Part shown: one piece after another, positions 13,234-47,837 of the stretch
Position numbering within the stretch: the stretch's first letter is position 1
Layout of the letters: each line of letters starts with the position of its first letter
Origin: Candidatus Latescibacterota bacterium
GTDB lineage: Bacteria; Latescibacterota; UBA2968
DNA length: 64,000 nucleotides
Direction of reading: 5' to 3'
NCBI GenBank assembly: GCA_965207885.1
Contig: OZ242311.1
Span: forward strand, 2,112,001 to 2,176,000
Made by a program: the position numbers and the translations under genes
The notes under the pieces: generated by a model
What the model saw: the letters and a program-made list of their open reading frames with translations, nothing else
Database searches by the model: none
Told to the model about the DNA's origin: nothing

Positions 13234-13340
13234 CTTTTTCCATCTCCTTTGCTTATTCAAACTTTTTCAAAAACGCTTTTGTCCAATTCGAGTTCCCGTT
13301 TTTTCTCACTACATAGTGCGATCAGATTGGACGGTGTATA

Positions 13341-13500
13341 GTGATTACTCCCAACGATAGAGGAGTTGGGCTTCTTGGCGGTCAAACCGCCTGACTTTGT
13401 AATCCCAAAGTCAATATGTTTATCGCAGCATTGAGGTCTCTGTCTGCTGTATAGCCACACGCCTTGCAATGATGCACACGATCAGAAAGTGCTTTCTTCT
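13341..13500 (-). ncRNA. Predicted TnpB omegaRNA (reRNA) scaffold
   Basis: By established TnpB biology the scaffold overlaps the tnpB 3' end and the right end, with the guide taken from the flank (UAUACACCGUCCAAUC). The 5' boundary is a guess. Confidence 0.55.
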
Positions 13501-14500
13501 CGCGGTGCCCACAAGAAGAGCAATCTTGTGAGGTGTATTCAGGATCAACGGCCTTGAATCCAATACCAGCCTCTTCCGCTTTATATTCGAGACAACGCCG
13601 AAACAGTGACCACGCTGCGTCTGAGATGCTTTTTGATAACCGACGATTCTTTTGCATCTTTTTATTGTCTAACTTTTCTGTTGCAACAAAGCCATACTTA
13701 TTGATTACTTTCCGAACTTCTTGATGCACAAAATTATGTCGTCTATTCCGGATGCGCTCATGCATTCTGGCAACAGTCTTACGCGCTTTCTCTCGTTTCT
13801 TTGACGATACTTTTTTTACTTTGTCCCACTTGCGCTGTGCTCTGGCAAGTACCTTTTCCTCTTTTTGAAAAAAGCGAGGATTTGCTATCTTTCCCTTATC
13901 AGAAAACATAGCAAATTTTTCAAGCCCTACGTCAATGCCAACGGCGGGGCCAGCGTCTGTTTTCTTACTTACCTCGCCTATATCACAAGAGATAGTAGCG
14001 AACCACTTGCCCGTTGCTGTGCGCCTGAGACTGCAAGACTTAGGCATACCCTCAAGTGGTCTGTGCTGGACAATCCGAATACAGCCTATTTTGCCCAATC
14101 GCAAGCCCTTCTCGTCCAATCGGCATCCATTGGAAAACTGAGGATAGGTGATAGAATCATAGCGATTCTGACCTTTGTATCTTGGAAAACCTGCTTTCTC
14201 GCCCGTCTTTGACCTCTCTTTGAGACGGCGGAAAAATCCTTTGAACGCCCAATCTACTCTCTGGCATACTTGCTGAAGAACTTGAGAATAGACAAGAGAA
14301 AAAGACTTACGCTGTTGTTTCAGCATTGGCAATGTCGCCTGTTGCTCATAGCGCGACAAACTTTCTTTATTCTTTTGCCATGCTTGGACTCTATCACAGA
14401 CAAGTTGGTTATATAGCAAGCGACATTCTTCAATGTGCGCCAGCAGGATTTTCTCCTGTTTTTTCGTTGGGCGCAATCTATATTTGAAGGACTTAAGCAT
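13382..14500 (-). CDS. tnpB: RNA-guided endonuclease TnpB, apparently intact
   Basis: KYRLRPT N-terminus; RuvC D (GIDVG), E (ATEKL), D (DRDLNAA); zinc finger CSSC..CKAC. Confidence 0.95.
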   Translation of the reverse strand: MLKSFKYRLRPTKKQEKILLAHIEECRLLYNQLVCDRVQAWQKNKESLSRYEQQATLPMLKQQRKSFSLVYSQVLQQVCQRVDWAFKGFFRRLKERSKTGEKAGFPRYKGQNRYDSITYPQFSNGCRLDEKGLRLGKIGCIRIVQHRPLEGMPKSCSLRRTATGKWFATISCDIGEVSKKTDAGPAVGIDVGLEKFAMFSDKGKIANPRFFQKEEKVLARAQRKWDKVKKVSSKKREKARKTVARMHERIRNRRHNFVHQEVRKVINKYGFVATEKLDNKKMQKNRRLSKSISDAAWSLFRRCLEYKAEEAGIGFKAVDPEYTSQDCSSCGHREKKALSDRVHHCKACGYTADRDLNAAINILTLGLQSQAV

Positions 14501-14506
14501 AATAAA

Positions 14507-14535
14507 AATATATATTTACGAGCATATTTTGTCAA
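14507..14535 (-). promoter_or_regulatory. Promoter of tnpB, implying a leaderless mRNA
   Basis: TTGACA-17 nt-TATATT-6 nt-ATG, with no RBS. Confidence 0.7.
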
Positions 14536-14551
14536 CTCATTTTTTGTAAAA

Positions 14552-14724
14552 TTAGTGGACGAACCTCAATGACTCACCGCCCACATCGCACAAGGCGATG
14601 TGCCCCATGCTAAAGCACCACACCATAAGCATGTCCCTGCGAAAGCAGGGAACCGTAGGCCCTAACAACGCTCGCTAACTCGCGTCTGCTTCCCAAATCT
14701 AAAGCATTTGGGCCTTACGAGCTA
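14552..14724. other. Conserved structured non-coding left-end module (copy 1)
   Basis: Shares 33-nt and 31-nt identical blocks and a covarying hairpin with 46909-47134. Confidence 0.8.
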
Positions 14725-16005
14725 TTTATTAAAAAAACGTCCTGCTTTCGTCAAGATTTCCGTGTGCTTAAAAAGCAAATATGCGATGCCCACCAGCGCC
14801 AACCCACCGTATTCCACCCATTGAACCCACACGGCTTCTTCCCATACACCACGGGTCTGATACTGGATCAAAATGTGGTAGGATAAGACCACCAGAAGTG
14901 AGAAAGCGATCCAGGGCGGATGCCGAAAAAAAACGAGAAATGGAATTAACCACACGACATACCACGGATGAAGAGTAGGAGTCAGCAGAACAAAGGCCGC
15001 CGCAGTCAGATATGCGCAGCGCAACAGGGGAATTCTTTTCCAGATCAGAAACAGAACAACACTTAAAAAGAGCAAGCCAATAATGCCACGCGCTATCTGC
15101 CCATTGCCGCAAAGCAGAATGAGTACATCGAATATCGCGCTATTAAACGACCAGTGTTGTGCATAAGTGCCCAGGCTACCAAAGACAGATGCGCCGGTCC
15201 AGGCATAGGGCAGATATCCCAGGAGTATGACACAGGGGACCATGAGCAGTGCCGACCAATTGGTTGGCAGCCACCCTTTCCAGCGCACAAAATACGGCAA
15301 AAAAACAAGGGGAAAGAATTTCACCAAAACAGCCCCGCCCAGCGCACTTAGCGCTATGCGATCTCGTCCTTTGAAGAACAAGTACAATGCGGCTAACAAA
15401 GCGACGATGCCCAGTGATTCAATATGTCCATTTCCAGCGATTTCCACCACGATCAGCGGATGCCAGAAGTAAATCAAAACCCATTGAGGCCGCTGCTCAA
15501 AATGCCTGAGCAAACAGACTATAAGCCATCCCGCAATCAGGTCGGCACACACGAGTAGCATCTTAATGCCCAGTATGCCACTCGAAATCCCATATCCTAC
15601 CCAGAATGCCATTTGGGCAATGGGCGGATAAATGGTGGGCAATTCGGGGTGGTTAATTTTGGAAAAAATGAGCGCGTCTCGTACATGCACCAGTTCTTGT
15701 GCTGCAGGTGCAAACCGGTAGGGGTTGACGCCCGCCCACTGTACGCGTCCATCCCACACATAGCGATAAATGTCATCGGATAGCGCGGGAATAGAAAACA
15801 AAAGGCTAAGCCGAAAAACAACGGAAACGATCACAATAGCGGTCAATGGCACATATTTACAATGCCAGATGGCAATGAGATAGGCCACAGATGCAATGCC
15901 AAAAAGCATAAAAAAAACCGGCACATGCTTGCCCAATGCCGGCATTGCAGCAAAACTGCTCGTCATGACCAACCCCATCAAAAGGGGCACGATCCACCGC
16001 TGCAT
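14722..16005 (-). CDS. GT-C fold membrane glycosyltransferase (GT87/MptB-like)
   Basis: LSDDIYRYVWDG, TIYPP, WHPLIVVEIAGNGH, HPWY; polytopic membrane protein. Confidence 0.85.
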   Translation of the reverse strand: MQRWIVPLLMGLVMTSSFAAMPALGKHVPVFFMLFGIASVAYLIAIWHCKYVPLTAIVIVSVVFRLSLLFSIPALSDDIYRYVWDGRVQWAGVNPYRFAPAAQELVHVRDALIFSKINHPELPTIYPPIAQMAFWVGYGISSGILGIKMLLVCADLIAGWLIVCLLRHFEQRPQWVLIYFWHPLIVVEIAGNGHIESLGIVALLAALYLFFKGRDRIALSALGGAVLVKFFPLVFLPYFVRWKGWLPTNWSALLMVPCVILLGYLPYAWTGASVFGSLGTYAQHWSFNSAIFDVLILLCGNGQIARGIIGLLFLSVVLFLIWKRIPLLRCAYLTAAAFVLLTPTLHPWYVVWLIPFLVFFRHPPWIAFSLLVVLSYHILIQYQTRGVWEEAVWVQWVEYGGLALVGIAYLLFKHTEILTKAGRFFNK

Positions 16006-46735: not shown

Positions 46736-46908
46736 CGTGCTGTCTCCCGTCGCGACCTATGTCGCTTTTAAGCGTTTGCACATTTAAATTATTTTATCGA
46801 TGTAAAACCAATTTTTGGCCTCCAAAACGCGCATAGCGATACCCTTTTCTTTATACAGGCCTTAAATTCGTGGAACACACAAACTATAAAATCCGTATAT
46901 TATCTCAC

Positions 46909-47134
46909 AGCCCGTAAGACCCACTCGCAGAGAGCTTTAGCGTTGGGAAGCAGACGCGAGTTAGCGAGCGTTGTTTTGCAAGGGCTTCCGAATCCCTGCT
47001 TTCGCAGGGACATGCTTATGGTGCGGTGCTTCCGTGTAAAATCATCACGGAACATGCTTGGCATGGTGGCACATTGCTCAAGGCAATGTGGGCGGTGGAG
47101 CGGTGTACAAGTGCGCCAGCACTTCATCAACTAA
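46909..47134. other. Conserved structured non-coding left-end module (copy 2)
   Basis: Homologous to the reverse complement of 14552-14724, with a 28-nt hairpin insertion. Confidence 0.8.
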
Positions 47135-47162
47135 AATCATTCGTTCACAGACCACATAAAAC

Positions 47163-47191
47163 TTGCATAAGTTACTGTTTTTGTGTATATT
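47163..47191 (+). promoter_or_regulatory. Promoter of the truncated tnpB, leaderless
   Basis: TTGCAT-17 nt-TATATT-6 nt-ATG (47198). Confidence 0.65.
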
Positions 47192-47197
47192 TATGCT

Positions 47198-47728
47198 ATG
47201 GAATACTTAACATACAAATACAAAATGTATAGTCTCTGTGATCGCAATATGTATATCCATAGGGATATAGATTCTTTTGCTGAGGTGTATAATCATTTCA
47301 TTGCTTTGCACAAGCGATACTATCGGCGTTTTGGCAAATATCCGAATAAGTTCACAATGATTAACCATTTGGCAAAGCTGAAAAGAACAACACGCTTTGC
47401 ACATTGGCGTTTGTTGCCGTCACAGGCATTGCAAAATGTGGTTGAGCGCATAGACTTTGGCTATCAGAAATTCTTTGCCAGAGATAATAAGCGTCCGCCC
47501 ACATTCAGGTCTCGCTTTCGGTATCAGTCCTATACGCTGAAGCAAGCAGGATACAAATTCCTTGAGCGTAACAAGGTGCGTATTGGCAAGCGTATATTCA
47601 GATACCATAAGAGCAGAAAGTTCGATGTAGAGCGTATCAAGACGGTCACAATCAAACGTGACCGCGTAGGCGATTTGTGGCTATGTGTTGTTGCAAAGGC
47701 TGAGGGTTTTAGAATCCCAATGCTTTAG
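47198..47728 (+). pseudogene. tnpB: Truncated TnpB (WED/REC part only; RuvC and zinc finger deleted)
   Basis: TYKYKMY, SQALQ, PTFRSR, IKTVTIKRD..GDLW; the frame runs into the right-end hairpin before the GID motif. Confidence 0.85.
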
Positions 47729-47837
47729 ATTTGGGAGTACGTCAATGAAACACAACATTTAACGGCTACGTCACAACGGAAAAGAGGTTGGCCCAAAAGC
47801 TATTGACACACCGCATGTACCTGTCGGTGTGATCTGG

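Follow-up and report, generated by a model that had tools for sequence, protein, structure and literature searches.

A long modular left end common to two divergent tnpB lineages in a Latescibacterota genome, probably an unusual transposon end and not a new RNA gene

The DNA considered here is a stretch of 64,000 nucleotides (nt) from the genome of a Candidatus Latescibacterota bacterium (assembly GCA_965207885.1, contig OZ242311.1, positions 2,112,001 to 2,176,000), referred to below as the window. It contains two transposable elements with divergent tnpB genes, and in each of them a related block of non-coding hairpins lies between the left end (LE) and the tnpB promoter. An original prediction, made from the sequence of the window, took this module to be a selected structured element in the place that tnpA occupies in IS605, and offered three options for its nature: a divergently transcribed non-coding RNA (ncRNA), a ribozyme or splicing module, or an extended single-stranded DNA (ssDNA) signal for TnpA acting in trans. 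The last of these comes closest to the reading favoured here, to which we give a probability of roughly 60%: the module is the extended subterminal LE of non-autonomous IS200/IS605 elements, its core probably a cis-acting ssDNA signal and its optional hairpins probably passengers.

The elements in the window

The two elements occupy these places:

13341-14728, minus strand: element 1, a complete non-autonomous IS200/IS605-family element of tnpB lineage A, in the order LE, promoter, tnpB, right end (RE); limits uncertain by 2 nt.
46905-47745, plus strand: element 2, which belongs to lineage B and is internally deleted when compared with full-length B copies and with the autonomous element described below; limits placed by sequence.

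In two RNA libraries from sponges or corals (runs X1 and X2) there are contigs in which position 13338 is followed directly by position 14727, so that 1388 nt are skipped, with a 2-nt ambiguity. They represent the empty site in related strains, so that element 1 is a discrete, scarless insertion. The limits first proposed, 13341-14727 and 46904-47745, were essentially right, the end at 14728 fitting the empty site and the start of element 2 being one base off. The open reading frame (ORF) for TnpB in element 1 (13382-14500, minus strand) encodes what is expected of a TnpB (OMEGA nuclease) cargo, a RuvC-like OrfB_IS605 domain (Pfam PF01385, 3e-21) and a zinc-finger, Cas12f1-like TNB domain (PF07282, 3e-26), as well as HTH_OrfB (PF12323, 2e-10). 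The insertion lies in the last codons of a host membrane-protein gene (ORF 14722-16005, minus strand), whose stop codon, the TAG at 14724-14722, comes from the insertion sequence (IS); the ORF of the empty site would be five codons longer. In element 2, tnpB (47198-47745, plus strand) breaks off after about 175 codons and continues straight into the last 35 nt or so of the RE; the internal deletion has removed the RuvC half along with most of the template for the guide RNA. The truncated TnpB is homologous to the full-length B copies and yields no significant Pfam domain.

Aligned pairwise, the two upstream regions present the features for which the module was first singled out: a 33-nt identical block (TTGGGAAGCAGACG...GTT), a 31-nt identical block that holds CCCTGC-TTTC-GCAGGG, an 8-bp stem with a compensatory change (C/T-G/A) and, as the longest indel, a sequence that is itself a hairpin (CCGTG...CACGG). 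The likeness of the two modules is far beyond chance, and it bridges TnpB lineages that are 27.6% identical as proteins. Folded as ssDNA, the modules of elements 1 and 2 give z-scores of -4.09 and -2.99, respectively, and none of 200 shuffles folds as well. A distal TTAGT(G/T)GA(C/T)GAA motif, also proposed as common to the two, is doubtful, its occurrences falling in non-homologous columns of the alignment of 60 copies that is introduced next.

Anatomy of the left end

To gather copies of the LE, this genome and 16 more were searched with regular expressions that describe the LE and the promoter. This gave 65 instances (63 unique), from which three unique hits (genome positions 352819, 2989963 and 5245596), lacking cassettes and of odd lengths, were dropped as spurious; the remaining 60 were aligned. 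Since the collection needs an LE and a promoter, the conservation of those two features is not to be judged from it. From the end inward, the order of parts is P1/H0, L1, H2, H4 (with H3 inserted into it), H5, H6 and promoter. In the window these lie as follows, with occurrence among the 60 copies in brackets:

14719-14723, minus strand: 5' arm of stem P1, AGCTC, pairing with 14658-14662, 3' of H0.
14658-14662, minus strand: 3' arm of P1, GGGCC, within AGGGCCTA; the stem of element 1 has a T-G pair and one mismatch.
14692-14712, minus strand: H0, the subterminal LE hairpin, presumed to bind TnpA, with one bulged base and a TTTA loop (TTTA or TTCA among the copies).
14664-14691, minus strand: cassette L1a, which lies within the 33-nt identical block and in whose stead a copy can have the 12-nt L1b (21/60).
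14629-14650, minus strand: cassette H2, the CCCTGC-TTTC-GCAGGG hairpin together with ACATGC, present or missing in alignments as a block of exactly 22 nt (28/60).
14608-14617, minus strand: H4, a small hairpin around the conserved GCTTTAGC (55/60).
14582-14602, minus strand: H5, an 8-bp hairpin (54/60 by column counts).
14507-14535, minus strand: tnpB promoter TTGACA-17-TATATT, found by consensus scan with 11 of 12 matches; ATG at 14500.
46909-46986, plus strand: P1 of element 2, 46909-46913 with 46982-46986, enclosing H0 (46920-46947, with a 7-nt loop extension) and L1a (46948-46981).
46994-47015, plus strand: cassette H2 of element 2, letter-identical to that of element 1.
47031-47058, plus strand: cassette H3 of element 2, the CCGTG...CACGG hairpin that makes up the longest indel (17/60).
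47070-47090, plus strand: H5 of element 2, CACATTGC-TCAAG-GCAATGTG.
47098-47125, plus strand: cassette H6 of element 2, an AAGTGC-GCCA-GCACTT hairpin (30/60).
47163-47200, plus strand: putative promoter of lineage B, TTGCAT-17-TATATT, with the ATG at 47198 after it, read by eye; it aligns with the A-type promoter and is not called by the consensus scan.

Across the copies P1 is a stem of 5-6 bp, AGCCC/GGGCT, that closes around H0, with TGCGC/GCGCA and AGTTC/GGACT among its variants. The L1 position is filled by the 34-nt L1a, by the small hairpin of the 12-nt L1b or by nothing; L1a is found in 14 copies of lineage A and 7 of lineage B, and all six of its occurrences in this genome are upstream of tnpB. 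The loop of H5, usually TCAAG, is inverted in element 1 relative to most copies, which is typical of DNA palindromes. Because the cassettes are 22, 27-28 and 34 versus 12 nt long, they break any reading frame; no ORF is conserved, as had been noted. One A-type copy (L002, G000:C1:3638778-3639060) has two extra GC-rich palindromic repeats (CCTG.CTG.GCG...), one in the H5 loop and the other before the promoter, so that the same spacer accepts other hairpin repeats too.

Relative to the A promoter, that of lineage B has a 12-nt insertion, from which a new -35 hexamer results. The ATG of tnpB comes 6 nt after the -10 hexamer in both lineages and, judging from that distance, the tnpB mRNAs of element 1 and of lineage B are probably leaderless.

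Copies in the genome and its relatives, and the one transposase

That only two copies of the module are to be seen is true of the window alone. With a 201-nt query from element 1, 12 places are found in the 6.23-Mb genome (G000), the self-hit aside, at E values from 1e-5 down to 3e-39, and a more sensitive BLAST search of the genome adds further pieces. About 12 of the genome's tnpB ORFs are of lineage A, that of element 1, and 10 are of lineage B, that of element 2; a few make up a lineage C. The module is directly upstream of 12/12 A-type and 7/10 B-type ORFs, so that some 20 tnpB genes have the same sequence before them; of the other three B-type ORFs, one is truncated at its 5' end, one is differently arranged and one has tnpA in between. 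Lineage C has P1, H0 and H4 in common with A and B. Two A-type copies (G000:C1:84221-85800 and 6165629-6167200) have identical upstream flanks of 450 nt and so go back to segmental duplication, not to independent insertions. A DNA search of 60 relatives found the module in 17 of 20 genomes of the genus and in none of 10 other genomes of the family; in the neighbouring family f2 one genome of 22 was positive, for the H2 unit only.

The genome has a single gene for a Y1 transposase (TnpA), with one PF01797 match (125 bits), and phmmer agrees. It lies at genome positions 1450901-1451293 and belongs to an autonomous element at 1450683-1452490, made up of P1-H0-H4-H5, promoter, tnpA, a B-type tnpB and a B-type RE. 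This promoter has been retained in the elements that have tnpB alone. Here the LE core lies upstream of tnpA and its promoter; the module is therefore not a substitute for tnpA, and its placement "in the tnpA position" does not hold. To check the further thought that it might be the decayed 3' coding end of a tnpA, the two modules and the 60 copies were searched with TnpA by tblastn; no tnpA remnant came to light (best E 0.98, over 14 residues). Relatives of this TnpA that are 80-100% identical come from metagenome-assembled genomes labelled Poribacteria or Latescibacterota, and the next, at 50% identity or less, from Ktedonobacteria and Actinobacteria. The LEs of elements with an 82%-identical TnpA (L045 and L046) consist of P1, H0 and H4 only.

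The pentanucleotide TTATC immediately precedes the LE in nearly all of the 60 aligned copies, with TTAAC or TTAAT in the subgroup of element 1. Both LE and RE carry subterminal hairpins of the CCCAA...TTGGG type and there are no terminal inverted repeats. With a Y1 TnpA in the autonomous member, subterminal hairpins, a fixed target and scarless excision, the elements belong to the IS200/IS605 family. The module matches the left ends already described for that family in kind, although not in sequence, and is probably best regarded as an unusual variant of a known structure. TnpA presumably binds H0 and cleaves the top strand. It would follow that the module is common to both tnpB lineages because both depend on the same TnpA and because their ends recombine, and that it holds no gene of its own.

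Two elements of 46-49 nt in the same genome (G000:C1:886352-886410, and on the minus strand in the 5438622 region) resemble palindrome-associated transposable elements (PATEs). In each, one hairpin serves both ends, in the order TTATC, LE linker, H0 and an RE tail that ends in TCAC. They are either PATE-like minimal elements or remnants of a deletion between end hairpins.

Conservation of structure

Of the claim that the module is a selected structured element, conservation of structure is borne out for a part, namely H5 and P1 plus H0; the rest consists of optional cassettes. In H5, 96.4% of 248 cells are paired, six of the eight pairs change on both sides and none of 500 shuffles reaches the score (31 distinct sequences, one of the 32 with a locus being left out for a 30-nt insertion), slid controls giving 22-48% pairing. 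For P1 plus H0 the corresponding figures, from 25 LE sequences without duplicates or rows lacking a stored locus, are 89.4% of 348 cells paired and 10 of 14 pairs changed on both sides. That set combines 17 of the 60 copies with eight LEs of autonomous relatives, six of them from Ktedonobacteria. In P1 alone five of six pairs have changed on both sides; in the H0 stem 93.9% of cells are paired and five of eight pairs have changed on both sides, across copies and phyla. Two Ktedonobacter ends have P1 arms that are completely different and yet complementary. All these counts are affected by kinship, the sequences being related to one another.

Stems can also be kept perfect without selection, by quasi-palindrome correction during replication. 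H2 and H3 are invariant and H6 departs from pairing only by unpaired or misaligned cells; the invariance of the three is evidence neither for nor against selection on their structure.

It might be argued that the hairpin array works in cis as a whole and that none of it is a passenger: it could keep the LE folded and single-stranded at the replication fork for TnpA, provide extra hairpins for TnpA or host proteins, or shield the tnpB promoter from outside transcription. The strong covariation of H5 fits such a role, as does the near universality of H4, which repeats the GC-TTTA-GC apex of H0 and is present in the autonomous element, in lineage C and in the LEs associated with the 82%-identical TnpA. 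The longest versions of the array, moreover, occur as several near-identical copies at different sites, which is compatible with recent movement, and the LE of IS200 holds a terminator hairpin against impinging transcription (PMC4513863). On the other side, every cassette except H0, P1 and H4 can be missing from otherwise intact copies, the minimal copy having just these three and about 45 nt between H0 and the -35 hexamer. The hairpins are without T-runs, and the one terminator-like site that was called in the module (14578-14558, minus strand) is none of the named hairpins. The distance from hairpin to promoter varies widely, and the invariant H2, H3 and H6 offer no evidence of structural selection. 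A cis role for the entire array is, on balance, unlikely, and we retain the division into a core conserved in structure and a spacer of optional cassettes.

A self-cleaving ribozyme or a splicing module like that of IStrons had also been suggested. Its position in the LE and its several hairpins are all that speaks for this. The whole window was compared with Rfam 15, which includes transposon-associated motifs, group I and II introns and self-cleaving ribozymes, with no match at the gathering threshold; at E values up to 10, stretches of 260-1700 nt brought up chance-level miRNA, snoRNA and c4-a1b1 hits, and no ribozyme or intron family. The statement that the module matches no named RNA family is thereby borne out. 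There is no conserved multi-helix core and the cassettes are optional; element 1, lying at the extreme 3' end of its host gene and supplying the stop codon, has no need of splicing. A ribozyme or intron is scarcely credible at this place.

A mosaic of cassettes

Counted by pattern among the 60 unique copies, the loop extension (c0ext) occurs 16 times, L1a 21, L1b 29, H2 28, H3 17 and H6 30 times, each of them in both tnpB lineages, and they make 33 combinations (about 33-35 over the 60-63 unique copies). All four combinations are found for 24 of 28 character pairs, H5 being excluded from this four-gamete count. The cassettes, in other words, reassort singly and are not exchanged between lineages as a unit, as had been supposed. 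Since H2 and L1a are letter-identical on elements whose TnpB proteins have diverged so far, LEs must have been exchanged recently and piecewise.

Turnover can also be seen in place. Three pairs among the 60 copies share an upstream flank in different genomes and two of the three differ in cassettes. In the clearest pair, an orthologous site in genomes G017 and G008 where flank and element are 95% identical over 423 columns, the sole internal indel is the precise 27-nt H3 hairpin, flanked by a TGCTT repeat.

Some of the cassettes also exist apart from the elements. H6 stands free at five intergenic places in this genome and at one in G001. The exact 22-nt H2 unit does so at four intergenic places in G042, a genome of another family (C1:3026653, 4149543, 4185460 and 4930893), and a variant of H2 with a compensatory stem change at two places in this genome (G000:C1:5656711 and 6202592), where free H2 is found in either orientation. 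The free H2 copies are embedded in a larger intergenic repeat with CTGCG / CTCTGCG motifs, and an H3-like hairpin lies inside another repeat. H2, H3 and H6 are thus short, dispersed intergenic palindromes that occur independently of the IS, in the manner of repetitive extragenic palindromic (REP) elements. High copy number and a REP-associated tyrosine transposase (RAYT), the other marks of REP elements, were not found: there are two to five solo copies, and the sole Y1 gene is the IS tnpA. Small palindromes may have colonised the one dispensable stretch of the IS or may have escaped from it.

DNA or RNA, and which strand

Folding energy was considered as a guide to the strand on which the module acts and was rejected: dinucleotide shuffles show the same offset between strands, and z-scores are similar for both (12 of the 60 copies tested). 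The wobble pairs show no consistent strand bias; in H5, G-T and A-C pairs number 4 to 4. Pairing of the module with the RE/guide-RNA region, in the manner of a tracrRNA, was also tried as an idea and discarded, the best complementarity being 9-10 nt.

Two kinds of RNA have to be weighed here. In the first, the module or its H4-H5 core would be the sense-strand leader of read-through or alternative tnpA/tnpB transcripts, controlling their processing, stability or translation. Some copies have a promoter-like site, TTGGGT-16-TAGAAT, at the L1b/P1 position, there are sense-strand G-T pairs in L1a and H4, and one RNA-library contig (X7, record 26), spanning 14409-14661, runs from tnpB into the module. 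The promoter-like site, however, is missing from element 1, element 2 and many other copies, and the strong conserved promoter, with the ATG 6 nt beyond its -10 hexamer, lies downstream of the module. The RNA data, Logan contigs of sponge or coral metatranscriptomes from 4 of 20 listed runs, give neither strand nor ends nor level; three runs have no cover over 14549-14619, which is not evidential, as copies differ there. With no Rfam match besides, a sense leader seems to us improbable.

The second, already part of the original prediction, is a divergent antisense ncRNA that runs outward through the LE. On the antisense strand the loop of H2 reads GAAA; in H0 the A-C pairs, which would be G-U in an antisense RNA, outnumber G-T pairs by 9 to 3; and IS200 has an antisense small RNA (sRNA) at its LE (PMC4513863). 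Yet a consensus scan of the module and its immediate surroundings shows no sigma-70-like promoter on the antisense strand, the wobble counts as a whole favour neither strand, and the hairpin with the GAAA loop, a 22-nt unit that is optional and invariant, can also be seen by itself at unrelated intergenic sites, in either orientation. The presence or absence of cassettes would make RNAs of very different composition, and to the RE/guide-RNA region there is no complementarity of more than 10 nt. An antisense ncRNA is accordingly very improbable, more so than a sense leader. Action as DNA, on the strand that TnpA uses, remains the favoured reading, the identity of that strand being something that we infer.

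A model of the left end

The elements would be non-autonomous and mobilised in trans by the single Y1 TnpA of the genome, and their LE would have two layers. The first would be an old core, conserved in structure, in which P1 closes around the bulged H0 and adjoins the TTATC target and cleavage site, and which continues with H4 and, in most copies, H5. It probably acts in cis as folded top-strand ssDNA, presenting the left cleavage site to TnpA in "peel and paste" transposition. The second would be the variable spacer from core to promoter, into which self-folding palindromic cassettes (L1a/L1b, H2, H3 and H6) are gained and lost as precise units, while recombination or gene conversion shuffles them between the copies, of which a genome has roughly 20. 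Of the cassettes, H2 and H6 at least would belong to families of free-standing, REP-like intergenic hairpin repeats. The cassettes are probably tolerated passengers. The spacer is the sole stretch of the element that is not coding, promoter or guide-RNA template.

Several observations count against this reading. Base composition accounts for the lower free energy that the top strand has in 59 of the 60 copies, and wobble counts do not favour that strand overall (G-T to A-C, 57 to 33, with 20 of the G-T pairs from one column). The X7 contig makes transcription through part of the module possible. The free cassette families are small (two to five copies per genome) and have no RAYT-type transposase, so that "REP-like" describes their form only. 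The test of P1 used 17 of the 60 copies and eight chosen outgroup ends, rows with L1a or the loop extension being dropped, and one Ktedonobacter LE (L064, also L071) is without P1. There is also H5, whose stem has been kept through many double changes, more like a selected structure than a passenger, and whose role the model leaves unexplained.

A bolder proposal would make of the LE a two-part device: a covarying three-way ssDNA fold, with P1 around the TnpA hairpin and H4/H5 beside it, extending from Poribacteria to Ktedonobacteria and serving as a second cis signal for single-strand transposition or its control, combined with a "landing pad" that lets REP-like hairpins insert and ride between genomes. 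We consider this speculative and a little less likely even than a cis role for the whole array; if it were true, the IS would be a vehicle for otherwise immobile mini-palindromes.

Comparison with known systems

The LEs of IS608 and ISDra2 offer the closest parallels to the extended LE favoured here. There as here, a subterminal imperfect hairpin of the top strand goes with a Y1 HUH TnpA, tnpB is dispensable cargo, the element inserts 3' of a fixed target of four or five nucleotides, with no duplication and no inverted repeats, and excision is scarless. The present LE differs in that additional hairpins, 100-250 nt of them, separate the TnpA hairpin from the promoter, and in a covarying stem, P1, that closes around the TnpA hairpin. 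We know of no description of a closing P1 stem or of extra LE hairpins for IS608 or ISDra2. A literature search that was not exhaustive, and that took in neither supplements nor extended-data figures, turned up no description of a covarying P1 stem or of a stacked, combinatorial hairpin spacer in an LE; an equally inexhaustive search for Poribacteria together with TnpB yielded no papers.

REP elements and the mosaics that they form (BIMEs) are imperfect palindromes, short and rich in GC, which are scattered through intergenic DNA and have ties to the HUH Y1 transposases. H2 and H6 are like them in occurring free-standing and unlike them in numbering only two to five free copies per genome, in the lack of a RAYT and in having most of their copies inside an IS end.

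ISGst1-5 of Geobacillus stearothermophilus have different TnpB or IscB proteins, very similar LEs and REs, one TnpA that acts in trans, and gene-less PATEs (10.1101/2023.03.14.532601). Lineages A, B and C, with one tnpA and two one-hairpin PATE-like elements, repeat that arrangement, so that the sharing of ends through one TnpA in trans is already known; it is the covarying P1 stem and the stacked combinatorial spacer that we have not found described. The passages of that preprint on which this comparison is based make no mention of a modular hairpin spacer.

For IS605 of Halanaerobium hydrogeniformans, 28-nt hairpin inserts in non-essential parts have been described as markers of recombination between copies (PMC7290912). 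A short motif is kept in the hairpin loops there (AAGCT) as it is here (CTTTAG). In Halanaerobium it is the RE and the interior of tnpB that hold the inserts, and the LE, uniformly 60 nt long, has one hairpin; in the present elements the LE is the site of the stacking, with at least five different cassettes.

The LE of IS200 combines a terminator hairpin, a stem-loop in the 5' untranslated region (UTR) and the antisense sRNA art200 (PMC4513863). More than one hairpin in the LE is thus common to both, with regulatory roles in IS200. The second stem-loop of IS200 is in the 5'UTR of tnpA and hides the ribosome-binding site; the hairpins described here are upstream of the promoter. IStrons, with their group I intron, and IscB elements, with their omega-RNA (HEARO), also have structured non-coding sequence between the LE and a nuclease gene; the present elements are set apart from them by the absence of an Rfam 15 match and of a conserved multi-helix core, and by a nuclease that is TnpB and not IscB.

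If the favoured reading holds, it carries a caution: a multi-hairpin block common to divergent tnpB genes need not be an RNA gene, and can be an end that several transposons have in common and by which a single transposase recognises them in trans. In this clade the LE is far longer than the textbook hairpin, and its covarying closing stem P1 and second hairpin H5 suggest concrete mutants for excision assays. The spacer is a clean natural case of precise gain and loss of 22-28-nt hairpins in which to study the origin, spread and deletion of palindromes in elements that transpose as ssDNA. It also shows what can be trimmed, which may be of use in engineering mini-elements.

Replication orientation and a G-rich tract

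With respect to replication, 24 elements of this genome are oriented 13 to 11, in a test that the very asymmetric origin and terminus deduced from skew make unreliable. Cumulative GC skew is lowest at 5.82 Mb and highest at 1.18 Mb, which would imply replichores of about 1.6 and 4.6 Mb; rearrangement, misassembly or a weak skew signal could account for the inequality.

In the Ktedonobacteria loci L048, L052-L056, L058, L059, L062 and L064 the LE hairpin is followed, about 60-110 nt upstream of tnpA, by a G-rich tract with three or four G-runs (TTCCTT..GGGGC.GGG..). The poribacterial copies have a weaker, G/T-rich counterpart. On the top strand, the Ktedonobacteria tract might form a G-quadruplex.

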